Source: an uncultured Gammaproteobacteria bacterium (GTDB lineage Bacteria > Patescibacteriota > Microgenomatia > 2-02-FULL-39-11). Taken from it: DNA of 64,000 nt. Shown piece by piece: positions 11,549 through 60,916 of this stretch (the stretch's first letter is position 1; each line of letters starts with the position of its first letter). The position numbers were made by a program, and so were the translations under genes. The stretch is taken from positions 10,239-74,238 of the forward strand of contig CAYGXQ010000004.1 in the NCBI GenBank assembly GCA_964354025.1. Direction: 5' to 3'. The notes beneath the pieces are model-generated. The model saw only the letters and a program-made list of their open reading frames with translations. It searched no databases and was not told the DNA's origin.

Positions 11549-11555
11549 GTTTAGT

Positions 11556-30454: not shown

Positions 30455-30483
30455 ATTCCTCCCGATTAAATCGGGACAGGAAT
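30455..30483 (+). promoter_or_regulatory. near-perfect 13-bp-stem hairpin overlapping the gdhA SD/start codon
   Basis: ATTCCTCCCGATTAAATCGGGACAGGAAT contains AGGAATG, with the annotated ATG at 30482. A sister copy TCCCGATTAAATCGGGAC lies at 30363-30380. Confidence 0.4.
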
Positions 30484-32854: not shown

Positions 32855-32927
32855 GGGCTCGTAGTTCAACCGGTAGAACATCTCATTTGCAATGAGAAGG
32901 TAGGCGGTTCGAGTCCGCCCGGGTCCA
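32855..32927 (+). tRNA. tRNA-Ala (anticodon UGC)
   Basis: Hand-folded cloverleaf: acceptor GGGCUCG/CGGGUCC with two GU pairs, D-stem GUUC/GAAC, anticodon stem UCUCA/UGAGA with loop UUUGCAA, T-arm GGCGG-UUCGAGU-CCGCC. No encoded CCA. Confidence 0.75.
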
Positions 32928-33051: not shown

Positions 33052-36116
<3,065 letters not shown>

Positions 36117-44296: not shown

Positions 44297-44352
44297 GATT
44301 CCATCATTATAAAGTCTTTTTCTTCCGTTGAAAAGAGATGATATTGACCTCT

Positions 44353-44751: not shown

Positions 44752-44756
44752 TATTA

Positions 44757-45092
44757 CTATTTCTCATTCCGGTAATGTGTATGTGTCTTTAACCACTTTT
44801 TACCATAGCGTTCATCACGCATCTTGCGGATAAATTCGGTGGATGATAAACCACCAAAACCATTTTTATTTGATCCCCAAGTCTTCCGCCAGTTTTCAAG
44901 CATTTTTGAAACTCTTTCAAGACGATCTGCATGCTTCTTTTCTTCAATCTCTCTCTTTTTCTCCTCAAAAGGATACATCACCACCACGGGTTCATTTTGT
45001 CTCTCCACGATCATAGGTTCGCCGGTGGCAATCACCCGGTCAATGATTTCCCCGAATTTTTGCCTGAAGGTGAGAGCGCTGACGGTATTCAT
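44757..45092 (-). CDS. Phd/YefM-type antitoxin
   Basis: Start taken at MNTVSALTFRQKFGEIIDRVIATGEPMIVERQNEPVVVMYPFEE (YefM fold). The longer upstream ORF extension is probably not translated. Confidence 0.5.
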   Translation of the reverse strand: MNTVSALTFRQKFGEIIDRVIATGEPMIVERQNEPVVVMYPFEEKKREIEEKKHADRLERVSKMLENWRKTWGSNKNGFGGLSSTEFIRKMRDERYGKKWLKTHTHYRNEK

Positions 45093-45168
45093 TATGATAA
45101 TGATACTATCATATGATATATTATATATCAATTGCTTCCACGGTAACCCTCCACGAGTTTCCGAAAAT

Positions 45169-45272
45169 GTCATTGCGATCCGCCCGCTGGCGGAGAAGCA
45201 ATCCCGTGATGTTACAGTAATTCCTACGGGATCGCCACGGGACGCACCGTCTGGTGCATCCCTCGCGATGAC
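45169..45272. repeat. palindromic ~100-bp dispersed element (GTCATTGCGA…CCGCCCGCTGGCGG…GAAGCAATCCCGT…GGATCGCCACG…CTCGCGATGAC), copy A, intergenic
   Basis: Terminal inverted repeats GTCATTGCGA / TCGCGATGAC and an internal 14-bp palindrome. Shares the GAAGCAATCCCGT and GGATCGCCACG blocks with copies at 46587, 54249, 58407 and 59479. Confidence 0.7.
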
Positions 45273-45347
45273 AAAGTTTTGCCAAATCCTGAACGATTAC
45301 AACCAGACTTGTTTAATCAGGAAGCAGGCATGTTATAATTCTGGAAA

Positions 45348-45915
45348 TATGCGGAAGAAAATCAGGGTTGGTTTTGATTTTGACGGCGTGATTGCCTATA
45401 ACCCATTTCGGGTCTGTCGGGCGCCCCTAACCTTTTTCAAGAAAAGAATATTAGGTGCGCAGAAGTTGAAGTTTTGGTATCCGCGATCCCGCTGGCAGCA
45501 GATTTTTTGGATTATTCTCCATCAGTCAAGTGTCTTTCCGGCCAAAGGGATAAGCCTTTTTAGGGAGATGGTGGAGAAAGAGGTGATTGAAGCCCATATA
45601 ATTACCGGCCGTTACAGTTTCCTGGATGATCATCTGGTCAGATGGTTGGATAAATACAAATTAAAACATCTTTTTAAGACGATCAATGTGAATAAAAAAG
45701 ACGAACAGCCGCACTTGTTTAAGGAAAAAATGCTCAAAGAATATGACTTGCATTACTTCATAGAAGACAATCTGGATATTGTGACTTACCTTCACGGCCG
45801 ACAACGGACGAAGATCTACTGGATCTATAACCTGATCGACAGAAAACATCCGCATCCGTATAAATCACCGCATCTGGAACACGCGCTGAAAGAGATTGCG
45901 AAAAAAATAAAATGA
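45348..45915 (+). CDS. HAD-like hydrolase (tentative)
   Basis: MRKKIRVGFDFDGVIAYNP has a DxDGV motif I of HAD phosphatases. It lies in the 3' part of a longer ORF whose 5' part covers a palindromic repeat. Confidence 0.35.
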
Positions 45916-47114
45916 AAGTTCTTTTTTCCATCACCTACTACACTCCTTATGTCTCCGGATTGACTCTGTATGTCAAAAGGCTGGCTGAGGCGTTGGCAGA
46001 AAAGAGTAATCAGGTATCAGTGATCAGCTTTCAGCATGAAGAGGGATTGCCTTCTGAAGAGAAGATAAATAATATCAGGGTAGTGCGGGTTAAGCCGCTT
46101 TTTAAGATAAGTAAAGGTTTTGTTTCTCTTGGTTGGTTGACGAAGTGCTTCCGCGAGGTGAGGAAACATGAGACGGTGATTATTAATCTGCCGCAGTTTG
46201 AAGGCGTTACTGCGGCACTACTTGGAAAAATCTTCGGCAAAAAAGTCATATCCGTCTATCACTGTGAAGTGGTTTTACCCCGGGGATTTTCCAACCGGAT
46301 CATCAATTGGCTGTTAAACCGGTCAAATAAGATTTCCCTTGCTTTATCGGACACGGTTGTCACTTATACCGAGGACTTTGCCAGTCATTCAAAAATATTA
46401 CTGCCGTATCTCAAAAAAACCAAGTATGTTTATCCACCTATACCTTTGCCAAAGATTGATAAAAGAGTACAAAAAATGATCATGGAGAAAATCGGAAAAA
46501 CAGACTATGTCATCGGCGTGGCCGCGAGGTTAGCGGCGGAAAAGGGAATAGAGTATTTGCTTGAGGCTATACCACTAATACAAAATGTCATTGCGAGGAA
46601 CGAAGCGACGAAGCAATCCCGTGGGGGATCGTCACGCCCCGCCATGGCGGGGCTCGCGATGACATACTCGCCTTTTAAAATTATCATTGCCGGCTCTTTA
46701 GATCCAGTCGGTGAAACAAGTTATAAAAAGAAAATATTACAATTAGTTGAGAAATATAGAGACTACATCATCTTCTTAGGAGAGTTGAAGGAAGAGGAGA
46801 TGGGAGCTTTTTATTCTTTGCTTGATGTCTTGGTGTTGCCGTCCATTAATTCCACCGAGGCTTTCGGCATGGTGCAGGTGGAAGCAATGATGATGGGCGT
46901 GCCGGTGGTGGCAACTAATCTTCCGGGAGTCAGGGTACCGATCCAAAAAACAGGGATGGGGACGGTTGTGCCCGTCAAAAACAGCCAAAAACTGGCGGAA
47001 GCGATTGTAGAAGTCTTAAAAAACAAAAAAGAATATCTTAAAGACAAAGAGATTGTAAAGAGAGAATTTTTGTTTTCTAAGACGGTTGATTTTTACGGTC
47101 AATTATTGACTTGA
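45912..47114 (+). CDS. GT4-family glycosyltransferase (with in-frame repeat-element insertion)
   Basis: The C-terminal VLPSINSTEAFGMVQVEAMMMGVPVVATNLPG matches the GT4 EX7E region. Residues ~227-252 (VIARNEATKQSRGGSSRPAMAGLAMT) are encoded by a 77-bp palindromic element. Confidence 0.75.
   Translation: MKVLFSITYYTPYVSGLTLYVKRLAEALAEKSNQVSVISFQHEEGLPSEEKINNIRVVRVKPLFKISKGFVSLGWLTKCFREVRKHETVIINLPQFEGVTAALLGKIFGKKVISVYHCEVVLPRGFSNRIINWLLNRSNKISLALSDTVVTYTEDFASHSKILLPYLKKTKYVYPPIPLPKIDKRVQKMIMEKIGKTDYVIGVAARLAAEKGIEYLLEAIPLIQNVIARNEATKQSRGGSSRPAMAGLAMTYSPFKIIIAGSLDPVGETSYKKKILQLVEKYRDYIIFLGELKEEEMGAFYSLLDVLVLPSINSTEAFGMVQVEAMMMGVPVVATNLPGVRVPIQKTGMGTVVPVKNSQKLAEAIVEVLKNKKEYLKDKEIVKREFLFSKTVDFYGQLLT
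46587..46663. repeat. palindromic dispersed element, copy B (77 bp), in-frame inside the GT4 CDS
   Basis: GTCATTGCGAGGAACGAAGCGACGAAGCAATCCCGTGGGGGATCGTCACGCCCCGCCATGGCGGGGCTCGCGATGAC. Confidence 0.7.
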
Positions 47115-47155
47115 TATATTTTTTGGTTATTGACAATAACCAAAAATAGAATATA

Positions 47156-48556
47156 ATGGTTAATATGATTAACCAAATTCCGGAAAGCACCAAAAGATTC
47201 CTGAGTTTGCAGAATCCGTGGTTTTCCGCGCCGGTTGAGATTATCAAGGAGGATGAAAAGCTTAAAGAGCTGGACAGTCAGCATTTCCAATGGCAGCCGG
47301 AAATTCTGGATGAAATTTCATACCAGCCGGGCGTGTTTGTTCTGCGCGGTCCCCGCCAGGTAGGCAAAACTACTGTTGTCAAATTATTGATTAAAAAGTT
47401 ATTGCTTGAAAAAAAAGTACCTCCAAGTTCTGTTTTTTATTATTCCTGCGAGGATCTGCAGAATTTTCAGGATTTAAACAACCTGATTTTCAGTTTTTTT
47501 GATCTGGCCGGTTCATTGCCGGCGGGTAAAAGATATATTTTTCTGGATGAGATTTCCTTTGTCAGGGAATGGCAAAGAAGCATTAAGTCATTCGTGGAAA
47601 GCGCGGGGGGGAAGAATATTTTTTTCTTTTTAACAGGTTCTTCTACTATTGACCTTGAATTTTCAGGTGAAAGATTACCGGGCAGGAGGGGAGCCTACAC
47701 CAGAGATTATTTATTTTTACCCCTGACTTTTGGAGAATTTGTGAAATTAACCTCACCGGAACTGTTTCCACCCGAAGAAAAGAAACAATTATTGATTTTG
47801 CCGAAATTGCGCGCCAAACTTCATCAATATCTTCTGACCGGCGGTTTTCCGAAAGCGATCAACAATTACTTCAAAAACAGAAACATTTCGCAGTCTATTT
47901 ATGAACTTTATATTTCCTGGGTGTTGGGCGATATCCATAAATTGAATAAATCGGATAAGTTTTTAAATAATTTACTGGCCGTATTGCAAAAACATGAGTC
48001 TTCGACGTTTTCGTACCAGTCTTTAGCCAGAGAAAGCGGCATTATTTCCCATCTGACGGTCCAGGATTATTTGGCGGTATTAGAAAAAATGTTTGTCCTT
48101 TTTCCGATTGACGCTTTTTCCATTGCCGAGAAAAAACCGTCTTATAAAAAAAATCATAAGAATTATTTTTATGATCCTTTCATCAAAAATTGCCTGAATG
48201 CCAGCGCCTTTGGTTTAACGGAGAATATCGCCAACTATATTAATGATCAAAAAGAAGAAGAGGATTACTGGTCAAAAAACGCGGAGAATTTGGTCGCTTC
48301 GCACCTTAAACGGGACAGTGCCCAATTATACTGGGGATCAATAGGCGAGAGGGAAGTGGATTTCGTCGTTTTCAAAGACGGAAGTTACAGTTATTTTGAG
48401 GTTAAACAGAGCGCGAGAGTCGAATTTGAAGATTTTTCATATTTTTTCACCGCGATGCCAAACAGCCGCCTGACAGTGATTTCCAAGAATGACTTTTGGG
48501 AAAAGAAAAATCTGAAAGTTATCCCTTTGGAACTGTTTCTTCTGAAAAAATTTTAA
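47156..48556 (+). CDS. COG1373-type AAA+ ATPase (second paralog)
   Basis: GPRQVGKTTV Walker A, then YIFLDEISF. Same architecture as the gene at 40806-41939. Confidence 0.65.
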   Translation: MVNMINQIPESTKRFLSLQNPWFSAPVEIIKEDEKLKELDSQHFQWQPEILDEISYQPGVFVLRGPRQVGKTTVVKLLIKKLLLEKKVPPSSVFYYSCEDLQNFQDLNNLIFSFFDLAGSLPAGKRYIFLDEISFVREWQRSIKSFVESAGGKNIFFFLTGSSTIDLEFSGERLPGRRGAYTRDYLFLPLTFGEFVKLTSPELFPPEEKKQLLILPKLRAKLHQYLLTGGFPKAINNYFKNRNISQSIYELYISWVLGDIHKLNKSDKFLNNLLAVLQKHESSTFSYQSLARESGIISHLTVQDYLAVLEKMFVLFPIDAFSIAEKKPSYKKNHKNYFYDPFIKNCLNASAFGLTENIANYINDQKEEEDYWSKNAENLVASHLKRDSAQLYWGSIGEREVDFVVFKDGSYSYFEVKQSARVEFEDFSYFFTAMPNSRLTVISKNDFWEKKNLKVIPLELFLLKKF

Positions 48557-48747
48557 GATAATTTTATGCAAGTAAGCTACGAGAGTAATCGTCCTGTTAA
48601 AATCAAACGAATTTGGTATTATCTGCAGTAAAAATATTGCAAGCGGCAAATTTTAAGATAAAAATCAAACCACGCAAAGAAGTAAACAATCTCGGATTAC
48701 TCTATGCGGTAAGATCAGATAAATAACAACTGGTATATTATTTTTCA

Positions 48748-49545
48748 ATGAAAAATATAGAGTACTTTTTTAAAGAATATTTCAAAAACAGGCCTCTTTT
48801 TCTCTCTTTGATCCGTGCTAAAGAGGCGTTTTTATATCAGAAATATTTGCCATTTAAAAGCCCAATTCTGGATATAGGTTGTGGCGACGGGTTCTTCGCA
48901 AAAACTGTATTAGGTCAGCAATGGAGCAAGGGAATAATTGCTGTAGGTTTGGATATTGCCGATAGCCGGATAGAGGAGGCGAGGGGTTTAGGAATGTATA
49001 AGAAACTGGTTATCTATGATGGTTTGAAGATGCCTTTTGCGAATAGATCCTTTAATACGGTCGTTTCCAATTGCGTGTTGGAACATATACCCGATTTGGA
49101 CGGGACTTTAAAAGAAATTTACAGAGTACTTAAACCCGGAGGACTGTTTATCACCACAGTCATGGCCAAACCATGGGAAGAAAATTTATTTGGAAGCATG
49201 ATCTTGGGTAAATGGTATAAGGATTGGATGAGAAAAAAACAGGTTCATCTTAACCTCTTTACAAGACAAAGTTGGGATCAGGCGTTCAGGCGAGCAGGAT
49301 TTAGAATTAGTTCTACGGTTGGTTATCTTTCCCCATCAGCCTGTAAATTAATTGATCTGTGTCATTATTTATCGTTGCCGAGCCTGATTACATATAAAAT
49401 ATCCGGTAAGTGGGTATTATGGCCAAAAATCAGTGAAAAGATCTACCCGATTGATTATTTAGTGAAAATTATTAACGAGAAAGTCAATACTGATAAATCA
49501 GGAGCCATATTTTATGTCTTAAATAAAAAAAATGTTAAACAATAA
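48748..49545 (+). CDS. class I SAM-dependent methyltransferase
   Basis: ILDIGCGDGFF (motif I) and VVSNCVLEHIPD (motif II/III), Methyltransf_11-like. Confidence 0.7.
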   Translation: MKNIEYFFKEYFKNRPLFLSLIRAKEAFLYQKYLPFKSPILDIGCGDGFFAKTVLGQQWSKGIIAVGLDIADSRIEEARGLGMYKKLVIYDGLKMPFANRSFNTVVSNCVLEHIPDLDGTLKEIYRVLKPGGLFITTVMAKPWEENLFGSMILGKWYKDWMRKKQVHLNLFTRQSWDQAFRRAGFRISSTVGYLSPSACKLIDLCHYLSLPSLITYKISGKWVLWPKISEKIYPIDYLVKIINEKVNTDKSGAIFYVLNKKNVKQ

Positions 49546-49684
49546 ATAAGAGCTTTTTATAGCTAGTCCTAGTCTTTTGGAATCATGGAGAAAATGAAAG
49601 GAAATCTGTCTTATACAAGAGTGAAATAATTTTATTATCCTTCAAGAACTATTGCTTTTCGGGCAGTGGAATATCAATAAAGCC

Positions 49685-51355
49685 TTAATTGGCAAACAAA
49701 CTATAACCTTTTGAAATATTGATTATCTTGCCGTTCGGATCCAGCTGTTGGAATTTATCGTTAAAATCTTCAGGAAAGATGATCGCGTAAACATATTTTT
49801 CATTAGGATTAAAAGTAGTTATAAACCCGTCATGATAGCCTGTGGTAATAGACTTAGCATTTTTTCCCTGTGAAAAATAATAGACTTTATCAAAGCCAAA
49901 TCCGGGATACGCAGCCACATAAATATGTCTTCCAGGGAAGTTTTTATTTATATAGTCGGAGATCATAACGCTTTCATTATAGCTTTCTTTTTCTACTGAT
50001 TTTAGGAAATATTTTTCATTATTGAAACAATAAATTAATAGAAAAATGATGATTAAGCCATATCCCAGAATTTTAAAATTCTTAGTCAGTTTAAAAAGGG
50101 TAGCAAACGGCAGAGCGCAGATAACAGATATAAAAGGGAAAGCCAAAGTTAACCGGTGATAGCCGGGGGGTGGAACGGCTAAGATCACTGTCGCAAGGGA
50201 AAGAAAAATGGTTAAAAACAAGACAAAAATAATCAGATTGTTGAAAAGCATGGTTGAGCCGATGAGCAAACCCAATATAAAGAGAATAAGCGTGAATTTA
50301 TCAAAAATCGCCTGATGGGCAAAGTCAAATCCGCCTGCGCCCCCGATATCGTTTTGATAGAAGGATTTTAAGGTATTCAGGGCGTTTTCTTTCAGGGGTA
50401 TCAGCGGACTTTCGCCTTTTTGGATTCGTTCCCGGGCTCCCGACCAGGATCCGGTTAGAAGAGAGACTTGGTTGGTGCGGGAAGTGAAATAATTATCGAA
50501 ACGGAAGGCGTAAGTTAAAAACGGACCTAAAACCACCAAAAAACCAATTAAGGCCCAAGCAAAATTTTTTATAACAGTTGATTTCTTATATTTCAAAAAC
50601 TGAAAAAAATAGACGATTGCCATTACCGGTAAAGCGATAAATGAAGTCATATAAAATAAATAACAAAAACCACAGGAAATTCCTGTCAGAACCGAGGAGA
50701 AATCGTTTCTTTTGCCTATTCCGTAAATCAAGGCGGCAATAAAGAGACAATAAATTGCAGTCCCGCTGATAAAAATCAATCCTAAAGTATCGAAGTACAA
50801 ACTGATGGCTAAAAACCCATAAAGGATTACGGCGATTAAAGCTATTTTCTTCGGGATGGATTTACCGGCAATATAAAAAAGGGCCGCGGAAACGATCAAT
50901 ATATAAGGTATAACCGACAATTTAACCGTAAGCAGATTTTCCCCAAAGATTAGAAAAAAGAATTTTTGCAACGCAAAAAACGGAGCAGGAAATTGAGATT
51001 GCCATTGAGTCTTATCACTGGGAATCCCGGAGAAAAAGATTATTTTTGAGAAATTTTCGGTGGCGGAAAAATAAGCGGTAAGCATGTCATCTCCATGGAT
51101 CCGGTTCAGATTGAAATTGACGATACGGACAATAGATGGCAGGAGAATAATCAGGAAAATAAGCAAATATTTTTTATTCACAAACCCGGATGGCAGTTTT
51201 AACGCATTTTTCTTACCGGTTAGAACACCCAGCGGTAAAATAACAATGGAGAGAATCCACCAGTATATTAAAACAGGAGAATATTTGCCGGTACTGACAG
51301 CAAAACTTATGCAGAGAGTAATAATAATTGATAACAGATAGATGATTATTTTCAT
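49685..51355 (-). CDS. GT-C-fold polytopic membrane protein (PMT/ArnT-like glycosyltransferase), paralog A
   Basis: 556 aa, ~12 TM, a periplasmic-loop RIHGDD motif and a C-terminal soluble domain. It has a tandem duplicate whose 3' ~270 bp are near-identical. Confidence 0.45.
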   Translation of the reverse strand: MKIIIYLLSIIITLCISFAVSTGKYSPVLIYWWILSIVILPLGVLTGKKNALKLPSGFVNKKYLLIFLIILLPSIVRIVNFNLNRIHGDDMLTAYFSATENFSKIIFFSGIPSDKTQWQSQFPAPFFALQKFFFLIFGENLLTVKLSVIPYILIVSAALFYIAGKSIPKKIALIAVILYGFLAISLYFDTLGLIFISGTAIYCLFIAALIYGIGKRNDFSSVLTGISCGFCYLFYMTSFIALPVMAIVYFFQFLKYKKSTVIKNFAWALIGFLVVLGPFLTYAFRFDNYFTSRTNQVSLLTGSWSGARERIQKGESPLIPLKENALNTLKSFYQNDIGGAGGFDFAHQAIFDKFTLILFILGLLIGSTMLFNNLIIFVLFLTIFLSLATVILAVPPPGYHRLTLAFPFISVICALPFATLFKLTKNFKILGYGLIIIFLLIYCFNNEKYFLKSVEKESYNESVMISDYINKNFPGRHIYVAAYPGFGFDKVYYFSQGKNAKSITTGYHDGFITTFNPNEKYVYAIIFPEDFNDKFQQLDPNGKIINISKGYSLFAN

Positions 51356-51368
51356 TTATGAGATACTA

Positions 51369-53036
51369 TTAATTCACGAACAAACTATAACCTTTTGAGA
51401 TATTGATTATTTTGCCGTTTGGATCCAGCTGTTGGAATTTATCGTTAAAATCTTCAGGAAAGATGATCGCGTAAACATATTTTTCATTAGGATTAAAAGT
51501 AGTTATAAACCCGTCATGATAGCCTGTGGTAATAGACTTAGCATTTTTTCCCTGTGAAAAATAATAGACTTTATCAAAGCCAAATCCGGGATAGGAGGCC
51601 ACATAGATATTTCTGCCGGGGAAGTTTTTATTGATATAGTCGGAGATCCTCAGACTTTCATGATATTCTTCACCTTTTATTGATTTCAAAAAATACTGCT
51701 GATTAAAGTACATATAGATAAATATAAAGATCACACAAACGATGTATCTTATTAGTCTATTTGTCTTATTGAGTGACAGCAAAATATAGAAGGGAATCGA
51801 AAGGATCATGGATAAGAATGGGAAAGATAGGGAAAGCCGGTGGTAGGCCGGTGGAGGAGTGGAGAAGACCATCGCGCTAAAACAAAAAAGAATAGTCAGA
51901 TAAATAAAAAGTACTTCGAAATTGGTAAAGATGAGAAATATTCCGATTATTGCTCCAGCAATAAATAGGTATAGAGAATATTTTTCAAAAAAAGCCAGAT
52001 GGCCGAAGTCATAGCCGCCGTGACCGCCAATACCATCTTGATAAAATGATTTGAGAGAAATAGTTAAACTTTCCTTAATTTCGTTGAGAGTACTGCTTTC
52101 ACCGCGGGCGATTTTATCTTTGATACCAGACCAGGAGCCGGAAAGTAGAGAGACTTGACTGGTGCGGGAAAAGAAATAATTATTGTATTTCAAAGCATAA
52201 GTAAGATAAGGCGACAGAACAATGAGGAAAGTCACGATGGCCAGGCCGAAATTTCCTATCACGGACAGTTTTCTCACGTTAATCAGTTGAAGAAAATACA
52301 AAATCAGCATCAGGGGAAAAGCGATAAAAGAAGTGTTATAAAAAAGATAACAAAAGCCGCAAAATAGTCCCGTCAACACGGAATAAACCGGTCTGTTTTT
52401 TTTCCACTGAAGAATCGCAAAGTAGAAGAAAATCATAAATGGTGCCGTACTGCTGACAAAATGCAATCCTAAAGTTTCATGGTACAGACTGATTGGTAGG
52501 AAAGCGTAAAGAATAACCGTGATGATAGCGGTTTTAGCATTAAAGATTTCCCGTATAATCAGAAATAGCATGAGGGAGATAATCAGTACATACGGGATTA
52601 CCGATAATTTTACGCTCAAGACGCCTTCTCCGAAACAAAGGAAAAATATTTTTTGCAGGGCAAAAAACATCGTCGGAAATTGGGCAACCCATTGTCCTTT
52701 ATCTGAAGGAATGCCTGAGAAAAAGTTTATTTTTGCGAAATTTTCGGTGGCGGAAAAATAAGCGGTGATAAGATCATCTCCATGGATACGACTGAGATTA
52801 TAGTTGGTTATCCTGATAATTGAAGGCAACAGAATTGCCAGGATAATGATGAGATTTTTTATCGAAAAGCGGATTTTGATATGGAAACTTTTTTTCTGAT
52901 ACAAAACCGAAGCAAGGATGAAAATGATTGACAATATCCACCAATAAATAAGAACCGGAGTATATTGATTCCGGAAAACCATCAGGTTGATATAAATACT
53001 GATTAGGATGGAAATAAAGAAAAAAATAATTTGCAT
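51369..53036 (-). CDS. GT-C-fold polytopic membrane protein, paralog B
   Basis: 555 aa, collinear with 49685-51355. Same RIHGDD motif and an identical C-terminal 85 aa. Confidence 0.45.
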   Translation of the reverse strand: MQIIFFFISILISIYINLMVFRNQYTPVLIYWWILSIIFILASVLYQKKSFHIKIRFSIKNLIIILAILLPSIIRITNYNLSRIHGDDLITAYFSATENFAKINFFSGIPSDKGQWVAQFPTMFFALQKIFFLCFGEGVLSVKLSVIPYVLIISLMLFLIIREIFNAKTAIITVILYAFLPISLYHETLGLHFVSSTAPFMIFFYFAILQWKKNRPVYSVLTGLFCGFCYLFYNTSFIAFPLMLILYFLQLINVRKLSVIGNFGLAIVTFLIVLSPYLTYALKYNNYFFSRTSQVSLLSGSWSGIKDKIARGESSTLNEIKESLTISLKSFYQDGIGGHGGYDFGHLAFFEKYSLYLFIAGAIIGIFLIFTNFEVLFIYLTILFCFSAMVFSTPPPAYHRLSLSFPFLSMILSIPFYILLSLNKTNRLIRYIVCVIFIFIYMYFNQQYFLKSIKGEEYHESLRISDYINKNFPGRNIYVASYPGFGFDKVYYFSQGKNAKSITTGYHDGFITTFNPNEKYVYAIIFPEDFNDKFQQLDPNGKIINISKGYSLFVN

Positions 53037-53517
53037 GAAATCAGTTGAATTTATTAATTAACAGCATCTTAATTGTCCTCTAGGAGTTTCTGACTATTAA
53101 TATTAGATTAATATAAAAATCCAAATAAATAAAGGGGGATGGTTTTTTATTCCCGATGAGGATACCTTATCAATATGGTCAGGAATGGGGATAGTCTATT
53201 CCTATTTTCCAGACATTCTTTTCTAAAAAAGCCTCGATAGTTTGTCTGTTTGCTTTATTGATAAGGTTTGAATGAGAAAGTTTACTGGTTTTTGCGTAGT
53301 CGGCAAGAGTAATAATCCTTTTGCCTTCCAAATATGCTAATCGCTTATGATAGCTATTGGTAAGCGCTTTTCCTACTATTTCTTCCATAACGGCAGATAT
53401 ACCTTTCTTCACGATTTTGTCAATATAACCGTGAAAAATAGGTATAATTTGTTACTTATTCACGATTTTGGCTATAATTCTCTTAATATTTACTAAAAAA
53501 GTTTGACTCCAGTCAAG

Positions 53518-54222
53518 TTATTTATGCCTGATCAGCGTCTTTACCGCTCCCCAGGCATCTCTGACGGTCAGTTTTTTGCCGGACAGATGGGAGCGGCCCC
53601 GGTATGAAATGGGGACTTCCACGATCGGGACTTTTGCCTTGACCAATTTTGCGGTGATTTCCGGTTCGATTTCAAACCGGTTTCCGGTGAGGTGAACTTT
53701 TTTCAAAAAAGACGAAGGTAATAGTTTATACCCGGTTTCCATGTCGGTAAGTTTGGTTTGGTAAAACAAATTTGTCAAAAAAGTCAGCAGTTTATTACCC
53801 CAAAGGTAAAGTCGGGGTATGACGGCATTGTTACTTAGAAAACGGGAGCCGTAGACGGCAATATTAGTCTTTAGTCGTTGGTCTTTAGTCTTTGGCGATA
53901 ATATTGGTTTTAAGAGCTGGGGAATTTCGTCAGGGTTGTATTCCAGATCGGCGTCCTGGATAAGGATATAGTCGCCGCTGGCCGCTTTTATCCCGGTTCG
54001 CACAGCCGTTCCCTTTCCCCGATTTTTCTTATGAGTAATGATCTTTAAATTCTTAATTCTTAATTCATAATTCTTAATTCTATTTCCCGTTCCGTCGGTT
54101 GATCCGTCATCCACCACAATAATTTCTTTCCGGCAGGGGAGTTTGACCCGGGAAACCTTATCCAAAACGGTAGAGATGGTTTTCTCTTCGTTGTAAACGG
54201 GAATAATGATTGACAGTTTCAT
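53518..54222 (-). CDS. GT2-family polyprenyl-phosphate sugar synthase (DPM1-like)
   Basis: IIIPVYNEE…VVDDGSTDGT…IQDADL (DxD) of GT2/GT-A. Contains in-frame taattct and tagtctt repeat tracts. Confidence 0.75.
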   Translation of the reverse strand: MKLSIIIPVYNEEKTISTVLDKVSRVKLPCRKEIIVVDDGSTDGTGNRIKNYELRIKNLKIITHKKNRGKGTAVRTGIKAASGDYILIQDADLEYNPDEIPQLLKPILSPKTKDQRLKTNIAVYGSRFLSNNAVIPRLYLWGNKLLTFLTNLFYQTKLTDMETGYKLLPSSFLKKVHLTGNRFEIEPEITAKLVKAKVPIVEVPISYRGRSHLSGKKLTVRDAWGAVKTLIRHK

Positions 54223-54248
54223 AATATTTAAGAGCCTGTTTGAGAAGC

Positions 54249-54346
54249 GTCATTGCGAGGCCGCAGCCGAAGCAATCCCGTGATACTATAGTAATTCCAA
54301 CAGGATCGCCACGTTCTCCGCCAGCTGGCGGATCGCTCGCGATGAC
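54249..54346. repeat. palindromic dispersed element, copy C, intergenic
   Basis: GTCATTGCGAGGCCGCAGCCGAAGCAATCCCGTGATACTATAGTAATTCCAACAGGATCGCCACGTTCTCCGCCAGCTGGCGGATCGCTCGCGATGAC. Confidence 0.7.
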
Positions 54347-54413
54347 ATTTTTTTGACTTTTCAAACAGGTTCTAACGCGATATTTTTGATATTTGCACTT
54401 TGATTTTGAAGTG

Positions 54414-56348
54414 TCATAAAGTAACAGAAAGAACTTTAAGATAATCTATAGTCTTGACCTTTTTGAAGATAATTACCTTCGGGTGGTCGTAGACGGTAAA
54501 AGTCTCATCAGCATAATCATCCACAAAACTGATGCCTGTTTGGTTGCATTCCTGCGTTTTCAGAGCTACTATTCCGTATCTGACGAAGGGAGGGGTAAGA
54601 CATAATTTAATTCCAGGTATGGGCAGATTCGGGCGGGAAGTAAATTCAGCCACTTTTTCAAAGCCCAAAGATCCATCAAATAACGCATTGTAATATTTAA
54701 TGGTAATCGGATATTTCTGGGGATAGGTCATGGTGGATCCATAAAGCCGGTTGCTGGTTAAGATCACGTAATCGGTTTTTTCCAAATCAGCGGAGATTTT
54801 TCTCCATTTTTCTTCGTTATCCGGCCAGTACAAGGGAAACTGCACTTTTTGATATTGTTCATGGATGTAATTTCCAAGACTCACGGGGAGGCCGTCGTCC
54901 CATTCTTCGCTTGAGACGGTTACGCCTGCCGGTAAGTTTTTGAATATCCAATATGAAGCCTCTACTCTTGAATTTAATCTTGAATAAATCGTAACAAAGG
55001 ATAGGGGATATACAATTATTAATAACCCAATTACCAAATAACCCAATAATCCAATTTTATATTTATTGATGATTCGGACAACAAAATATCCGGAAAGAAT
55101 AGCTAGAAAAGGATAGATCGGGAAGAAATATCGGAGAGCCTTGACGAATTGCCCGCCTTGGTAAATGAATAATATGAGGATCCAAAGAGTCGATAAAAAG
55201 AGTATAAAGTGGGAAGTATTAAGTATTTGGGATAATTTTTTCTTCTGAAATAGTAAACGTATTATACATAATACTTGATACATAATACTTAATACCGCGA
55301 GTATTCCCAGAGGTATTCCTAAGCCCCAAAACAACATATTTTTCAAAGGAAAAAGGTAAGGTTTAGTGGTAATCCATTGAACCGCGGGAGGGAATCCGCC
55401 GGTTGTATCGTCAAAAGATTTTAGCTCTTTCCAATTTTGCAGAATTTTTGGGTTTAAAGAGAAAGTGATCAGAGCAGAGTTGGAGAAAAGATACGGTTGA
55501 GCCAGACGGACGGTGAAATAGGAAGAAACAAAGAACATAAAACATATAACAAAAAACAAAAAAAGATTTCTATTCTTAATCAAAAAGAATAATAGACTCA
55601 GTCCGATGATTGGGAGAAATAAGACGGCGGTGATTTTCGAGGCAATGGCCAGACCAAACGCAATTCCCAGGAGAGTTGTAAGTTTTAAGTTGCAGGTTAT
55701 AAGTTTATTACCTTTTTGAGTGTTAGAGATTATTTTGATGAGAAGATAAAAAGATAGAGCGATGAAAAAAGTCAGATAGGTTTCCACGGCGAAGAAATGG
55801 GAGAGTTGGATAGGAAGGACCGACGCCGCATAGAAGAACATCGCCAATAATGGAAAAATCCAATTTTTTGGTAATGTCATTCCGAGTCCGCCAGCTGGCG
55901 GATCCGAGGAATCTTCCAACGATGGAAGATCCCTCCACGCGTCCCGATCTGATCGGGACTTGGTCGGGATGACGCTTTTTGCGATGAGCAAAACGAGAAT
56001 CACCGTTCCCAGATCGAAAAAGCCTGAAAGCGACCTTCCGATAAGCGTCAGGTTTCCGTAATCTCCTTTCCCAAGGCCTTCAGCCACCCATTTGGTGAAA
56101 AAGATGGGGAAGGTGCCGTAGACGAAAAAGCCGTAGCCGCGGTTATGAGGATTGAGGGGAGAAGTGGCAGTATCAAGATATTCCGTCAGATTCTTTGGCC
56201 AGGCGATACCGTTGGCCACCATGGTCAAAAACCTTTCGTCAGGATGAAGGTGCTGGTCCTGGTCCCAGTTGACGCCGTAGAGGCGGAAGAATGAGGCTAA
56301 AAATAAAATTCCTAAAGCTACTATTATTATTTTATATTTTTCTCTCAT
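54414..56348 (-). CDS. GT-C-fold membrane glycosyltransferase-like protein (with in-frame repeat-element insertion)
   Basis: 644 aa, polytopic, with an N-terminal loop HLHPDERF. It shares a C-terminal …LGFEKVAEF…TFTVYDHP… with 56363-58375. Residues SRSDRDAWRDLPSLEDSSDPPAGGLGMT are encoded by a 98-bp palindromic element. Confidence 0.45.
   Translation of the reverse strand: MREKYKIIIVALGILFLASFFRLYGVNWDQDQHLHPDERFLTMVANGIAWPKNLTEYLDTATSPLNPHNRGYGFFVYGTFPIFFTKWVAEGLGKGDYGNLTLIGRSLSGFFDLGTVILVLLIAKSVIPTKSRSDRDAWRDLPSLEDSSDPPAGGLGMTLPKNWIFPLLAMFFYAASVLPIQLSHFFAVETYLTFFIALSFYLLIKIISNTQKGNKLITCNLKLTTLLGIAFGLAIASKITAVLFLPIIGLSLLFFLIKNRNLFLFFVICFMFFVSSYFTVRLAQPYLFSNSALITFSLNPKILQNWKELKSFDDTTGGFPPAVQWITTKPYLFPLKNMLFWGLGIPLGILAVLSIMYQVLCIIRLLFQKKKLSQILNTSHFILFLSTLWILILFIYQGGQFVKALRYFFPIYPFLAILSGYFVVRIINKYKIGLLGYLVIGLLIIVYPLSFVTIYSRLNSRVEASYWIFKNLPAGVTVSSEEWDDGLPVSLGNYIHEQYQKVQFPLYWPDNEEKWRKISADLEKTDYVILTSNRLYGSTMTYPQKYPITIKYYNALFDGSLGFEKVAEFTSRPNLPIPGIKLCLTPPFVRYGIVALKTQECNQTGISFVDDYADETFTVYDHPKVIIFKKVKTIDYLKVLSVTL
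55876..55973. repeat. palindromic dispersed element, copy D (variant), in-frame inside the GT-C CDS 54414-56348
   Basis: GTCATTCCGAGTCCGCCAGCTGGCGGATCCGAGGAATCTTCCAACGATGGAAGATCCCTCCACGCGTCCCGATCTGATCGGGACTTGGTCGGGATGAC. Confidence 0.6.
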
Positions 56349-56362
56349 ACTTTATCAGTTTA

Positions 56363-58375
56363 TCATTTTACAAAGAGGAGTCTATATTCTTCCGCCGTCA
56401 TAGGCTTGACTTTCTTATAGATCCTAATCACCGGATGATCAAAGACGGTATACGTCTCCTCAGCCTGTTCATCCGGAAGCGTCCAGCGTAAAGCGTTAAG
56501 CGTTAAGCTGGGGAAAGAACTGAACTCGGCCACTTTTTCAAACCCTAGGTTACCGGAGAAAAGAAGCCGGTAATATTTGGCTAAGCGGGGATATTTGGTC
56601 AGAATCTTCGGATGATTGGCAAAAAGCCGGCGGGAGGGGATGAAAATATAATCGGCTTTCTCCAGATGGGTGAAAAGCTGGTCAAAAATCGCCGGATTTT
56701 CGTCCATATGATAAAAATCAAAAGAGATGACCGGTACATTATTCCATTTTTCCGAAAGTGGTCGGTCCGGATCATCATTAAGAAGACCAAGAGGGATATC
56801 CACAACGTTTGCTGTTTCAGAAAGGACATAGGAATTACCGGGAATATTTCTATAGATCCAGCGGGAGGCAGTCAACCGGCTGTCTTCGCTGGCATAGATA
56901 GACATGAAAGCGACCCCTGGTAAAAAGCTCAAAAAGCAAAACGCAAAGATCAAAAATTTAATAAGTGGTCGGGATGATAGGAACTGATAGAATTTATACA
57001 AGAGATACCCTGCAAAAATATAGAAGAAAGCAAATATCGGTGTCATGAATCTGGTCCATTTGGCGAAAAGAAAAGCGTTGGGGATAAAGTAAATTAAAAA
57101 TGAAACCGTTATGATAAATAATAATAGAAACTCGTTCCGTTTCGTATTCTTTGTATAATTTGAAATTTGAGTTTTGAAATTTTTATTAAATTTGAAAATT
57201 TTTAATTTGAATTTTGATTGAAAATTGAAAATTGAAAATTGAAATTTTTTTCCTAGATCAATAATAAAAATAACAACTGTAATTAGAAACCCAAGGGAAC
57301 CAAGAATAAATACCGGCCATCCAAGCGTATATGGAAATACCTTTTGTGCCTGAAAGACAATCGGGACGGTATTGACAAACTGCCTGGTATAAAAAGCTTC
57401 GTACCGGCCGGTGGCCACATCGCTTTCGTAGCCGAAGACCGCGCTTTTGAAGCTTTCTTTTTCCACCAGATTATACGGAGAGGAAACGGCGGTGAAGAAG
57501 AGGGAACCGGCAAGTAATAATAATCCAATAATCAAATAAACCCCTGCCTGCCGGCAGGCAGGCAATAACCCAATCAGCCAATTTTTCCTCTTTTTTTTAA
57601 AAAATATAAATAATTGCATCATAATTGCCAAACCGGGCGGGACGAAAAAGAATAAACCGGTGAATTTGGAGCCGAAAGCCAGGCCGATGGTTAAAGATAA
57701 AAGTATTAAGTATTTAGTATTAAGTATTAGGTATTTTCGGAAAGATTTTTTAAGTGGATTTTCTAATAATTTCATTGAAAGATATATAGAGGAGAGGAAG
57801 AAGTAAGAGAGTAAAGATTCGGTGGTGCCGAAGTGGGCCGCCTGGATGAGTCCCGGAGAAAAAGAACTGGCAAGGGCGGCTAAGAGGCCAAATTTGAGAC
57901 CCGTCAATTTCCTGGTAATCAGATAAACGAGATAAACGGAAGCAACCGAAGAGAAGGCTGACCAGAAACGCAGCCAAAAGATGGCCGCCGGGAAATTGGT
58001 GGCAAAAGCTTCACGGTCATCCATTATTTGAGCTGAATAAATGTTGAAAACAGGTTTTGTCACCTGGTTGGAAAGATAGGCCAGATAGAGAGGGAATTGG
58101 CCGTAGGCGAAAAAATGGGGATTAAGGCTGCATAAATTAGCGTCTAGCGGATAGCGTTTAGCGTCTAGCTGGTAAGGAAAGAATTGAGATTTTAGACAAG
58201 TGGAGATAGAGGATAGATTTTTGGGAAGGCGAAACTGCATGATTGCACCGGCCATATTGCGTTCGTCTGGGTCAAAAAAATACGGATAATCGCGCATCAG
58301 GTTATAGAAGCGGAGAAAGCAGGAAATAATTATAATAGCTATTAAAAATAGTTTTATTTTCTTTAATATTTTCAT
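56363..58375 (-). CDS. GT-C-fold membrane glycosyltransferase-like protein (paralog)
   Basis: 670 aa with an FFDPDERN loop motif and C-terminal NLGFEKVAEFSSFP…ETYTVFDHP paralogous to 54414-56348. Contains in-frame simple repeats (gaaaatt x n; taagtatt x n) and an in-frame TAGCGTCTAG element. Confidence 0.45.
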   Translation of the reverse strand: MKILKKIKLFLIAIIIISCFLRFYNLMRDYPYFFDPDERNMAGAIMQFRLPKNLSSISTCLKSQFFPYQLDAKRYPLDANLCSLNPHFFAYGQFPLYLAYLSNQVTKPVFNIYSAQIMDDREAFATNFPAAIFWLRFWSAFSSVASVYLVYLITRKLTGLKFGLLAALASSFSPGLIQAAHFGTTESLLSYFFLSSIYLSMKLLENPLKKSFRKYLILNTKYLILLSLTIGLAFGSKFTGLFFFVPPGLAIMMQLFIFFKKKRKNWLIGLLPACRQAGVYLIIGLLLLAGSLFFTAVSSPYNLVEKESFKSAVFGYESDVATGRYEAFYTRQFVNTVPIVFQAQKVFPYTLGWPVFILGSLGFLITVVIFIIDLGKKFQFSIFNFQSKFKLKIFKFNKNFKTQISNYTKNTKRNEFLLLFIITVSFLIYFIPNAFLFAKWTRFMTPIFAFFYIFAGYLLYKFYQFLSSRPLIKFLIFAFCFLSFLPGVAFMSIYASEDSRLTASRWIYRNIPGNSYVLSETANVVDIPLGLLNDDPDRPLSEKWNNVPVISFDFYHMDENPAIFDQLFTHLEKADYIFIPSRRLFANHPKILTKYPRLAKYYRLLFSGNLGFEKVAEFSSFPSLTLNALRWTLPDEQAEETYTVFDHPVIRIYKKVKPMTAEEYRLLFVK

Positions 58376-58406
58376 TAAAATTAAAACATGACTTACGTAA
58401 TTTTAT

Positions 58407-58505
58407 GTCATTGCGAGGCTAAGAGCCGAAGCAATCCCGTTGGGCAAACTGGTATCCTACGGGATCGCCACGCTCTCCGCCAGCTGGCGGATCGCTCGCG
58501 ATGAC
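58407..58505. repeat. palindromic dispersed element, copy E, intergenic
   Basis: GTCATTGCGAGGCTAAGAGCCGAAGCAATCCCGTTGGGCAAACTGGTATCCTACGGGATCGCCACGCTCTCCGCCAGCTGGCGGATCGCTCGCGATGAC. Roughly 90% identical to copy C in the outer blocks. Confidence 0.7.
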
Positions 58506-58517
58506 AAATAACCAATT

Positions 58518-59438
58518 TCAGAGGACATATAGGATGGTAATGATTATTACTCCCCAACAACCCATGGAAACAATTAAAGGAATATCAGTTGTCACGATCT
58601 TTTCCGGTTGTTCCGCATCGGCTCCGCTGTAGGCCAGTTGGGCGTAGCGCATGAGGATGTAGATGATAAAAGGGATAGTGATTATCATCCATTTCCGATC
58701 CACTGCTTGAGGCATGACGGTTATCAGGAAATCTTTGACGGGTGTATTGAATTGCGGCGGCTCCTCAAGAAAAGCAAAAAGTGAATAAGCGATGATCGAA
58801 GCTGATCCGAACATGGAAGTATAAAAATCCAAAAGCCTTTCCTGATACTGGAAGAGAGCCGGTCTGGTTTTTGAGCCTTCCCGCAGCAGTTCGGCGTGCC
58901 TTTTTGTGGCGGCAATAAAGATAGCGATAAAAATAATGGTCAAAGACAGCCAGAAGGGGAGGTGGAAGCCGGTCAGGATTTCGCCGGCAAAAGCCCTAAG
59001 CGTGAAAGAGAAAGAGATGCTTAAGATATCCAAAATAGCGTATTTTTTGAAAACCAGCGAATAGAGAACATGGAGAAGGATAAAGGAAAAAGCAATCATA
59101 AAAAAACCGGGCGAAATAAGGATTGCGGAAAGCAGGGCAAAAAGGGCTAAAAGGAAGGCAATTTCAACAGCCGTGTTCAAAGGCAAGTCGCCTGAGGCAA
59201 GCGGCCTTTTTTTCTTGAGGGGGTGAAGCCGGTCGTATTTTAAGTCGATAATGTCGTTGAAAAGATACGAGGATGAAGAAAGGGCGCAAAAGATAAAAAA
59301 TCCGGATAAGGTATGCAATAGATAAGGACCGTCAAAAATTTTGCCGTTGAAGATTATTGCCGCAAAAAGGATCAGGTTCTTGATCCACTGGTTTGGCCGC
59401 AAAGCTTTGAATAAAATCCGCCAGTTTAACAAATTCAT
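58518..59438 (-). CDS. UbiA-family prenyltransferase (decaprenyl-phosphate phosphoribosyltransferase-like)
   Basis: NDIIDLKYDRLHPLKKKRPLASG matches the NDxxDxxxD UbiA motif and resembles the DPPR-synthase subfamily. ~8 TM. Confidence 0.7.
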   Translation of the reverse strand: MNLLNWRILFKALRPNQWIKNLILFAAIIFNGKIFDGPYLLHTLSGFFIFCALSSSSYLFNDIIDLKYDRLHPLKKKRPLASGDLPLNTAVEIAFLLALFALLSAILISPGFFMIAFSFILLHVLYSLVFKKYAILDILSISFSFTLRAFAGEILTGFHLPFWLSLTIIFIAIFIAATKRHAELLREGSKTRPALFQYQERLLDFYTSMFGSASIIAYSLFAFLEEPPQFNTPVKDFLITVMPQAVDRKWMIITIPFIIYILMRYAQLAYSGADAEQPEKIVTTDIPLIVSMGCWGVIIITILYVL

Positions 59439-59478
59439 ATTAGTTTAGTAGTTATGCAATGAATGTTGATTTAGATTT

Positions 59479-59517
59479 GTCATTGCGATCCGCCGGCTGG
59501 CGGAGAAGCAATCCCGT
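59479..59517. repeat. palindromic dispersed element, copy F (truncated 5' half)
   Basis: GTCATTGCGATCCGCCGGCTGGCGGAGAAGCAATCCCGT, then unrelated sequence. Confidence 0.5.
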
Positions 59518-59585
59518 CCGAGATTGCCTAAGCCCTGTCAGTTCTTATTTTAAGTGACGGTCATTTGAATATCAACCTGGATTAG

Positions 59586-59660
59586 CTATTAGTCGTTAGC
59601 TTTTAGTCTTTAGCAATCTGATGTTACTAATGACCAACGACAAACAACTAAAGACCAATA
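59586..59660. repeat. GTCGTTAGC/TTTAGTC palindromic element
   Basis: TTAGCTATTAGTCGTTAGCTTTTAGTCTTTAGCAA…CTAAAGACCAA. A related copy lies at 63261-63372 downstream of rho, and a fragment sits in-frame in the GT2 gene (53865-53896). Confidence 0.55.
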
Positions 59661-60916
59661 ATTTTTGATACTTCATCGCCTAATTCTATAGCGTAATTCG
59701 TCCCCCTGTCCCAGGGATAAACCATATCCATATTGGCCAGATAAACGTCTTGGATAGGGGTAACGAAATCTGGTTTGGTTTTTGAATAATTGACGGAGAA
59801 AACCGGTTGGGCGGAGGGGGAACGGAATAGTTGTAGGCCCGCCTTCGCTAAAGCTTCAGAGGGTAAATTGGGATTTATTTTTTTTAAATAGGGTAAATAG
59901 AGCTTGAAAAGTTGCTCTTTGGACATTGCCAGATACGGGTGGTCGTCGGGTAAATAGTTGCCGACGTAGGTTAAATGTTTGTTGCCGTAATATTTTTTAT
60001 CAACCAAATTGGTTTGCTGGATGACGGAGATAAAGGGAAACTGCCGGTCATTGATGTTCAGCCAGTAAGTCTCCGGCAGGATTTTTTCTGCTACGATAAT
60101 CAGCAGAGTGAGGGCGGTCAGGTGGGGGATGGAGCTTAGTTGTTTCTTATAGCTTGCCGGGAGCCGGGGATAGAGTTTTATAAATTCGCCGGACGGGGCA
60201 GTAAAAATAATTTTGTCAAACTCTGCCGTGTTTGCCGGGTGAAAAGGAGTATTAAAGAGAACTTTGGCGCCATTATTGGTGATATTTTTCACCAATGTAT
60301 CGAGAAAAGTTTGGTATCCGCCTGACAGATAAACCAACTTCATGGTCCTTTTTTTGATTCTCGCCCAAAACCAGGCCATGTTTACCAGTTTTGCGAATCC
60401 GCCGGCCGGCGGACCGAATTTACCGTCAAAAAGCGGTTTCCAGATGACCCGGAAAGCATCCCGGCCGTAATATTTCTCAACGGTTTGATATGCCGTTTCT
60501 TTTTCCAAAGATAGGCCGGTCTTTTTCGGCAGTAATTTGAGATATAAGGTAGCCAGACCGGTCCGAAGACGGTTGGGAAAACTGATTGGGGAAAAGGCGA
60601 GCACATGAGCTGGTGTATTGAATGGATAGATACGGCCGTGATAATAAATTGCCGTTTGTGTTTTGGAAAAAATGATAAGATCAGACAGTTGCAGTTCTTC
60701 CAGCAATCTCATTGTCGAAACATCGTTGGTAAACCAGTGGTGATAATGCTGTTCAACCGGCCATGTCCATGAGGGGAGCTTAAAGGTAGCCGAAAGTCCG
60801 CCGGCAAATTTTTCTTTTTCAAAAACGGTGACTTTGTGATGTCTTGACAGTTTAAAAGCGGCGGTAAGTCCGGTAAAGCCGGCACCAATGATGGCAATTT
60901 TCAAAGGACTCGTCAT
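59648..60916 (-). CDS. Rossmann-fold FAD/NAD(P)-binding oxidoreductase (amine-oxidase/UDP-galactopyranose-mutase-like)
   Basis: The N-terminal KIAIIGAGFTGLTAAFKL…FEKEKFAGG is a dinucleotide-binding GxGxxG…E…GG pattern. Contains an in-frame CCGCCGGCCGGCGG palindrome (60399-60412; FGPPAGGF). Confidence 0.55.
   Translation of the reverse strand: MTSPLKIAIIGAGFTGLTAAFKLSRHHKVTVFEKEKFAGGLSATFKLPSWTWPVEQHYHHWFTNDVSTMRLLEELQLSDLIIFSKTQTAIYYHGRIYPFNTPAHVLAFSPISFPNRLRTGLATLYLKLLPKKTGLSLEKETAYQTVEKYYGRDAFRVIWKPLFDGKFGPPAGGFAKLVNMAWFWARIKKRTMKLVYLSGGYQTFLDTLVKNITNNGAKVLFNTPFHPANTAEFDKIIFTAPSGEFIKLYPRLPASYKKQLSSIPHLTALTLLIIVAEKILPETYWLNINDRQFPFISVIQQTNLVDKKYYGNKHLTYVGNYLPDDHPYLAMSKEQLFKLYLPYLKKINPNLPSEALAKAGLQLFRSPSAQPVFSVNYSKTKPDFVTPIQDVYLANMDMVYPWDRGTNYAIELGDEVSKIIGL

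Follow-up and report, generated by a model that had tools for sequence, protein, structure and literature searches.

The window analysed here is a stretch of 64,000 nucleotides (positions 10,239 to 74,238 of contig CAYGXQ010000004.1; all coordinates below are those of the window), and the best matches of its proteins are found in Candidatus Gottesmanbacteria/Microgenomates of the candidate phyla radiation (CPR). Between 45 and 60 kb it carries genes for GT4 and GT2 glycosyltransferases, four membrane glycosyltransferases of the PMT/PMT_2 type, a methyltransferase and a UbiA-family prenyltransferase. The gene content of this region differs from that of relatives which have ~87% nucleotide identity in common genes. 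Six copies of a short palindromic element, designated A to F, are located in this region. They were noticed in a preliminary description of the sequence, and all six were confirmed at the coordinates given there. Its statement that the copies cluster in a glycosylation locus also holds, since the flanking genes are of the GT4, GT2, PMT_2 and UbiA types.

Five of the copies (A to E) are head-to-head heterodimers of two hairpin-forming half-units, here called doublets. Doublet A (45168-45273, + strand) is intergenic and adjoins a VapC/Phd toxin-antitoxin pair; its left half (45169-45203) has an ATTGC/GCAAT stem with the apical hairpin CCGCCCGCTGGCGG, and its right half (45230-45272, read on the - strand) has an ATCGC/GCGAT stem. 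Doublet B (46586-46664, + strand) lies in frame within the open reading frame (ORF) 45912-47114, which encodes the GT4 glycosyltransferase. Doublet C (54248-54347, + strand) is located between the GT2 gene and a gene for a 644-amino-acid (aa) PMT-like protein, and doublet E (58406-58506, + strand) between a PMT gene (56363-58375) and the UbiA-family gene (58518-59438). Doublet D (55875-55974, + strand), which has ATTCC/GGAAT on the left and ATCCC/GGGAT on the right, is inside ORF 54414-56348. F (59478-59517, + strand) is a solo left half-unit with the structure TGTCATTGCGAT-CCGCCGGCTGGCGG-AGAAGCAATCCCGT. Two more solo half-units were found on the - strand. One (13324-13360), directly upstream of the pyruvate phosphate dikinase gene, has a third stem type, CGTC-ATCCT-GAG-TCCGCCAGCTGGCGGA-TCGA-AGGAT-C; the other (30454-30486) is intergenic, has the structure TGTC-ATTCC-TGTCCCGATTTAATCGGGA-GGAAT-CCA and is accompanied by a degenerate second unit at ~30372-30405. 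All half-units in the window begin with TGTC or CGTC.

As an independent score of the window, we used an nhmmer profile of 78 copies, all of which came from other genomes. The profile matched A, B, C and E over the full model with E-values in the region of 1e-14 to 4e-17 (E, 4e-17; C, 1e-16; A, 2e-14; B, 9e-14), so these copies align above background. F was matched at 59478-59523 with E = 7e-5 over model positions 1-45 only, that is, the left half; it had been called truncated, and is instead a solo half-unit without any truncation artefact. Beyond these five there was no nhmmer match in the 64-kb window, and shuffled windows gave E-values of 0.7 or more. D was not matched because it represents a parallel subfamily with ATTCC/ATCCC stems. 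The sequence GTCATTSCGAG with at most one mismatch occurs 11 times in the window against 1.6 expected, and 0 of 100 shuffles reached 11. A direct-repeat search of the window also recovered the family and showed F to be 98% identical to the left half of A.

Outer arms lengthen the repeat at A to ~45133-45303, and outer inverted arms at 54231-54247 and 54357-54373 extend C to a unit of 54231-54373. Matching flanks had made A and locus L192, C and L189, and E and L188 candidates for orthologous insertion sites. This was rejected because the members of each pair have no neighbouring genes in common; the flanks common to A and L192 and to C and L189 are the outer arms of the longer repeat unit. The flank match of E with L188 is short, and outer arms have been demonstrated for A and C. 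A replication-strand bias, to which the location of the six listed copies on the G-rich + strand had pointed, was dropped because the two other solo units are on the - strand.

The surroundings of A have features of their own. The relatives L001 and L002 lack a ~1-kb segment (44345-45354) which holds the VapC (PIN) toxin gene (44353-44751, - strand), the Phd/YefM antitoxin gene (44757-~45092, - strand) and element A. Each of the two junctions of this segment looks like the one promoter region present at the empty site, so that a ~55-nt imperfect direct repeat is formed. The start ATG of ORF 44757-45173 (45171-45173) is the CAT of the GTCATT terminus of A; the true start of this ORF is probably downstream, since the Pfam match begins at residue 28.

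The anatomy of the element was determined from 90 full copies, 4 from the window and 86 from elsewhere. Two half-units, which are not identical, are joined head to head in each element, and this holds likewise for all 86 copies from other genomes. A half-unit is composed of a 5' YGTC tag, a 5-bp basal stem starting with AT, a small internal loop (GAG/GAA or GAG/CGTG), a variable apical hairpin of 6-45 nt and a 3' C-rich tail. The left half-unit reads YGTC-ATTGC-GAG-(variable hairpin)-GAA-GCAAT-CCCG on the + strand and the right half-unit reads YGTC-ATCGC-GAG-(variable hairpin)-CGTG-GCGAT-CC on the - strand, which gives the constant blocks YGTCATTGCGAG, GAAGCAATCCCG, GGATCGCCACG and CTCGCGATGACR. 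The half-units are separated by an unstructured spacer of 0-30 nt. Stems of the types ATTGC/GCAAT, ATCGC/GCGAT, ATTCC/GGAAT and ATCCT/AGGAT were found, with CCCG, CCAG or CCA as tails; the 5' ends of the 90 full copies were TGTC in 43, AGTC in 23 and CGTC in 8.

The two apical hairpins vary almost from copy to copy, with 76 and 75 distinct sequences among the 86 copies. They nevertheless fold, with minimum free energies of -5.4 and -6.1 (shuffles, -2.6 and -2.2); stems of at least 4 bp were present in 48% and 77%, compared with 24% and 33% for the shuffles. Covariation is seen at the outermost base pair (T..A in 46 copies, A..T in 27). At stem position 3 there is T on the left and C on the right in at least 83 of the 90 copies, and D and its relatives, which exist in other genomes, follow the same rule with ATTCC/GGAAT and ATCCC/GGGAT. 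Therefore each half is perfectly paired within itself, whereas pairing across the halves gives one G.T and one A.C. The copies in the window fold far better than shuffles (z = -2.5 to -6.5), in agreement with their first description as hairpin-forming elements resembling repetitive extragenic palindromes (REPs) and transposable elements of the miniature inverted-repeat type (MITEs); the superfamily to which we assign them below has been described as REPs (Di Nocera 2013, BMC Genomics 14:522; PMC3733652). In the computed minimum fold of the whole strand the element forms a four-way junction, and each half alone folds into the expected hairpin. The cloverleaf was considered as the selected form and rejected, because its cross-half positions are G.T and A.C while the pairs within the halves are perfect. 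For the same reason, the two separate hairpins are taken as the conserved form.

Such strong folds, and the location of C, E and F in spacers between co-directional genes, would also suit a primary role at the RNA level, in which transcribed hairpins stabilise or terminate the mRNAs of the glycosylation genes, as REPs and bacterial interspersed mosaic elements (BIMEs) do in operons. Many REPs have been argued to be transcribed (PMC3733652). However, the question whether the element is a known structural RNA was answered by the lack of any Rfam match at the gathering threshold, with only chance-level miRNA and snoRNA matches at E <= 10. At C, E or F the transcribed strand, as read from the sequence, has no T-run, and copies are found within ORFs as well as in both orientations with respect to genes. 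The perfect stems within each half exist on both strands, which is relevant to DNA only, and SsnA, a Neisseria nuclease to which we return below, does not bind RNA (Chenal 2025, Nat Commun 16:2388; PMC11893778). We therefore regard a primary RNA role as quite unlikely. The elements may have a side role in operons at the RNA level, but this is insufficient alone to explain the data.

In the preliminary description, the palindrome CCGCCAGCTGGCGG with its CAGCTG centre was taken as the core of the family, and its PvuII-like sequence raised the idea of a restriction-modification or recombinase target. Five copies do contain CCGCCAGCTGGCGG and thus a PvuII site. The palindrome is, however, one of many interchangeable apical hairpins: it is the left one in A, D and F and the right one in C and E, B and most family members lack it and have unrelated hairpins in the same position, and it is swapped for CTCGTTCCTCG in copies of the related genome PFL108. 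Its central four bases vary (AGCT, CGCT, GGCT, GGCC and AGTT) while the CCGCC/GGCGG stem is kept, so it behaves as a hairpin loop and not as a restriction site. That a restriction-modification or recombinase target defines the family is scarcely credible.

Isolated copies of this palindrome had also been listed. The one at 13335 belongs to the genuine solo half-unit on the - strand, whereas the tag is missing from those at 441 and 60399, both within ORFs. There the mini-palindrome (A/G)TCCGCCNGCNGGCGGA(C/T) stands alone, without YGTC, at 435-456 in a GNAT/FemAB-like ORF (116-1090; peptide QSASWRT) and at 60393-60414 in an amine-oxidase-like ORF (59648-60916). These tag-less mini-palindromes may be a separate small module or decayed units. 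A hairpin of the 23S rRNA at ~33796 had been thought related to the family. It results from 15 nt that enlarge a hairpin loop of the rRNA (around 33790-33812, near model position ~690), and the insertion creates CCGCCAGUUGGCGG, one base off the mini-palindrome. The 23S gene (33061-36109) is 3049 nt long compared with 2925 nt in the model, and it is directly preceded by a tRNA gene (32855-32927); there is no 16S gene in the window.

With hardly any change, the four constant blocks recur in over 100 loci, which represent eight phyla or more. A 23-base pattern across both inner blocks was found in at least 104 loci of a genome collection, and the left half-unit pattern in at least 120 loci of viral contigs. 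Hosts of the 23-base pattern include Gemmatimonadales, four proteobacterial classes, Verrucomicrobiota, Acidobacteriota, Bacteroidota and many CPR lineages. Among the 80 matches listed, which were counted by hand, 30 were from CPR and 17 from Gemmatimonadales or related bacteria; the others were from Alpha-, Beta-, Gamma- and Deltaproteobacteria, Verrucomicrobiota, Acidobacteriota, Bacteroidota and one DPANN archaeal bin. The G+C content of the loci ranges from 0.32 to 0.71 and the flanking pair is lineage-specific (A..T in Gemmatimonadales), so the wide distribution is no contamination artefact.

Two of the doublets are in-frame parts of ORFs. The GT4 ORF continues through B, which encodes VIARNEATKQSRGGSSRPAMAGLAMT in the linker joining the two Rossmann domains of the enzyme. 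In a DNA alignment this stretch is missing from the three closest orthologues (82-84% identical), with a net difference of 84 bp or 28 codons. B is thus a polymorphic insertion, present here and absent from close relatives. The related genome PFL108 lacks an insertion at the GT4 site and carries 8 or more copies at other positions. D is read in frame on the - strand, giving the peptide VIPTKSRSDRDAWRDLPSLEDSSDPPAGGLGMT within the 644-aa PMT-like protein, and it occupies a hypervariable loop whose length and sequence differ freely among orthologues. Elsewhere in CPR, the doublet is found in frame in leucyl- and isoleucyl-tRNA synthetases (LeuRS and IleRS), LepA and glycosyltransferases. The preliminary description had correctly recognised the element family; the in-frame reading of B and D and the make-up of two non-identical half-units had escaped it.

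More distant GT4 orthologues have other repeat-like peptides in the linker position of B. In the Gottesmanbacteria orthologues P0005-P0066 the linker (window 46580-46680) shows the recurring peptides KTPRGWPAYKDSP..., SRITSNENDSGQARMT and FWTSQND. These look like translated copies of further repeat families, and the linker like an insertion hotspot. The LeuRS of Parcubacteria GW2011_GWB1_42_6 (locus L125) has three different in-frame insertions of tagged repeats, CHCEESEGRRSNP...ARDD, VIASSERAKQSR...APRNDD and VIPAQAGIQ...RFHGDD.

The same half-units accompany a gene elsewhere. By tblastn of the fetched loci, small GIY-YIG genes were found in 4 of the 104 genome-collection loci. At L193 the GIY-YIG ORF is exactly bracketed by a left and a right half-unit, at L213 the gene is flanked by full doublets, and at a Saccharibacteria locus it is flanked by units of a further stem type, ATTCT/AGAAT. 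We also fetched 80 metagenome loci which encode relatives of the L193 protein (54-76% identity). ATTGC-type units were present within 300 nt of the gene in 74 of the 80 loci and on both sides in 54; the chance rate of ~0.01 units per locus is our rough estimate and not a computed value. Usually a + unit lies 3-100 nt upstream of the gene and a - unit 4-12 nt past the stop codon, and several of these loci contain exactly two units and none besides. The associated proteins (L193, L213 and the metagenome loci) are ~95-aa single-domain proteins with PF01541 only. Proteins of this type are common in CPR, many of them on very short contigs. Y8, Y19 and E66 of the L193 protein have the same spacing as the catalytic residues Y6, Y17 and E64 of SsnA.

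Since the same half-units bracket a GIY-YIG gene elsewhere, as in the Ssn architecture (Chenal 2025), we interpret the copies in the window as gene-less, non-autonomous, MITE- or REPIN-like doublets of a GIY-YIG (Ssn-like) mini-cassette within the CGTC-tagged REP superfamily. We give this interpretation a probability of roughly 0.7.

The doublet architecture resembles that of REPINs (REP doublets forming hairpins), and the terminal inverted repeats of 12 bp are similar to the ends of MITEs. The copies could thus be REPINs moved by a REP-associated tyrosine transposase (RAYT) of the IS200/IS605 type, or MITEs with terminal inverted repeats moved by a DDE transposase. However, the tag is YGTC and not GTAG, there is no target-site duplication, the window has no Y1 or DDE transposase (no Y1_Tnp match among its 55 ORFs), and the gene found between half-units encodes a GIY-YIG nuclease; no transposase flanked by CGTC units was reported in PMC3733652. 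Movement by either kind of transposase is very improbable.

The chief rival of the Ssn-like interpretation is that the copies are fossils, which once spread with a GIY-YIG cassette and now persist as neutral or mildly useful DNA without a cognate nuclease. The window of 64 kb contains no nuclease gene, F and the two other units are solo halves, and extinction is one of the possibilities raised for the CGTC families (PMC3733652). On the other hand, the window is ~6% of a genome of roughly 1 Mb. Copies from distant phyla have identical versions of the four constant blocks, while their hairpins and spacers differ, and such constancy would be hard to keep without selection or recent spread. In addition, relatives whose shared genes are ~87% identical at the nucleotide level lack B. 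We consider the fossil explanation rather unlikely.

If the doublets belong to an Ssn-like cassette, the following mechanism may be proposed. When DNA becomes single-stranded during replication, repair or DNA uptake, each half would fold into its hairpin. An Ssn-type nuclease encoded elsewhere in the genome would bind the hairpin and its 3' C and nick the DNA at a distance of a few bases 5' of the GTC tag. With the two halves in inverted orientation, the nicks would be made on opposite strands, just outside the element, and they would promote copying, loss or local recombination. Copies would persist where they are harmless, that is, in intergenic spacers and in frame in flexible protein loops. 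As the window has no nuclease gene, we infer the activity in this genome, which includes the existence of the cognate nuclease, its cutting of the units and a link from cutting to mobility.

Several results weigh against the Ssn-like interpretation. No GIY-YIG, RAYT, transposase or integrase gene is present among the 55 ORFs (>=90 aa) of the window, and none was found in ~45 kb of loci from the related Microgenomates genome PFL108. NCBIfam gave no match for the GIY-YIG protein and the PDB only weak UPF0213 matches, so there is no family-level assignment. At B, the insertion of 84 bp exceeds the 79-bp element by 5 bases, which are unexplained, and there is no target-site duplication. The shared orientation is limited to the doublets and F, the two other solo units being on the opposite strand. 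The published search pattern for Ssn-related motifs (SRMs), HGTCWYN(0-2)YYVSBRHN(0-5)WNVSBRGN(0-2)RNCYNB, matches the NTS control but no unit of the window, and it occurs nowhere in the window; what makes the units fail it is a G as the fourth base of the stem, together with the long hairpin nested in it. Finally, we know of no Ssn protein for which transposition activity has been shown.

Other features of the window are as follows. The tandem PMT_2-type paralogues 49685-51355 and 51369-53036 are 93% identical over the first 300 nt and ~70% over the remainder, a pattern which suggests recent partial gene conversion. Low-complexity intergenic repeats, TTAGCGTCTAG and TTAGTCTTTAG, occur at 11554, 32932, 53863, 56476, 58137, 59581 and 63266, and the one beside F could be a divergent right partner (59580-59634, - strand). 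Toxin-antitoxin and related modules are dense for a small genome (3300-3674, 7076-7528, 7950-8520, 16658-17213 and 23545-24582), and comprise three genes for PIN proteins, two BrnT/CopG pairs and a fusion of a Fic protein with a MerR domain.

This study places abundant and previously unremarked CPR repeats in a superfamily with a biochemically defined partner, the Ssn single-stranded DNA (ssDNA) nucleases. It widens the Ssn partnership to include hairpins of a type that escapes the published search pattern, and it bears on the 2013 claim that CGTC REPs have no dedicated enzyme. For annotation, peptides such as VIARxEATKQSR...LAMT are repeat-derived, which is relevant to reading the many 'CPR-specific insertions' in conserved proteins. 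If it is true that the nuclease drives gain, loss or recombination, this would be a mechanism that diversifies cell-surface glycosylation. More tentatively, the ~95-aa GIY-YIG gene between one T-type and one C-type hairpin might be the long-missing autonomous partner of CGTC REPs in general, forming with its gene-less doublets a pan-bacterial system comparable to insertion sequences and MITEs and moving by way of ssDNA, which in CPR would be a major source of lineage-specific in-frame insertions in essential proteins (aminoacyl-tRNA synthetases and LepA) and of plasticity in surface-glycosylation loci; we think this wider proposal possible but doubtful.

Among known systems, REPINs and BIMEs share with the present elements the inverted doublets of short hairpins and the role of non-autonomous partners of a small gene flanked by the repeats. 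In REPIN/RAYT systems, however, the tag is GTAG and the enzyme an HUH tyrosine transposase, whereas here the tag is YGTC and the enzyme a GIY-YIG nuclease. The Rickettsia palindromic elements (RPEs) are likewise found in frame in coding genes including housekeeping genes, apparently tolerated in loops. They are another sequence family in another host phylum; RPE-4 and RPE-6 are CGTC-tagged (PMC3733652).

CGTC-tagged REPs were defined as having stems starting with AT and C-rich tails; they form head-to-head dimers, often heterodimers, some of which are intragenic, they include dRS3/NTS of Neisseria and RPE-4 and RPE-6 of Rickettsia, and they 'apparently lack a dedicated transposase' (PMC3733652). 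The window elements fit this superfamily. They have the unpaired 5' CGTC/TGTC tag, a stem whose first two pairs are A-T and T-A, and a 3' tail rich in C (consensus CCA), they are mostly head-to-head dimers and often heterodimers, the spacers may contain small stem-loops, and some copies are in ORFs. The ATCGC...GCGAT ends of the right half (peptide VIAGLDPAIH) are those of CGTC-3. In contrast to CGTC-1 to -4, which have a continuous 8-9-bp stem and a 4-5-nt loop, the present units have a 5-bp stem, an internal loop and a nested hairpin. ATTGCGAG and its peptides are absent from the supplementary tables of PMC3733652, and a full-text literature search returned only unrelated primer matches for the terminal 11-mer and nothing for the repeat-derived peptides. 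The units are likely to be outside the four described families. CPR is not among the five phyla in which CGTC REPs were described (PMC3733652).

Another close counterpart is the NTS of Neisseria (dRS3 plus flanks), which with related motifs flanks ssnA, a 94-aa single-domain GIY-YIG gene (PMC11893778). SsnA binds the hairpin only as ssDNA, needs GTC 5' and C 3' of the palindrome, cuts a few nt upstream and modulates transformation (PMC11893778). Patescibacteria and in-frame insertions are terms that occur 0 times in that paper, and CPR hosts, the ATTGC/ATCGC stem type and the fixed T/C heterodimer are described neither there nor in PMC3733652. New in this study are the stem type with a nested variable hairpin and its fixed heterodimer, the occurrence in a CPR host, the direct connection with a GIY-YIG clade and the in-frame copies in CPR enzymes. 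What sets the window units apart from NTS and SRM repeats is their fixed combination of a T-type and a C-type half, their modular hairpins and, in some copies, the outer arms. They share with them the frame YGTC-ATT...AAT-CC(A/C)G, the GTC and 3' C required by SsnA, which are present in every half-unit, the clustering around variable surface-related genes and, in other genomes, the repeat-gene-repeat layout around a ~95-aa single-domain GIY-YIG gene.

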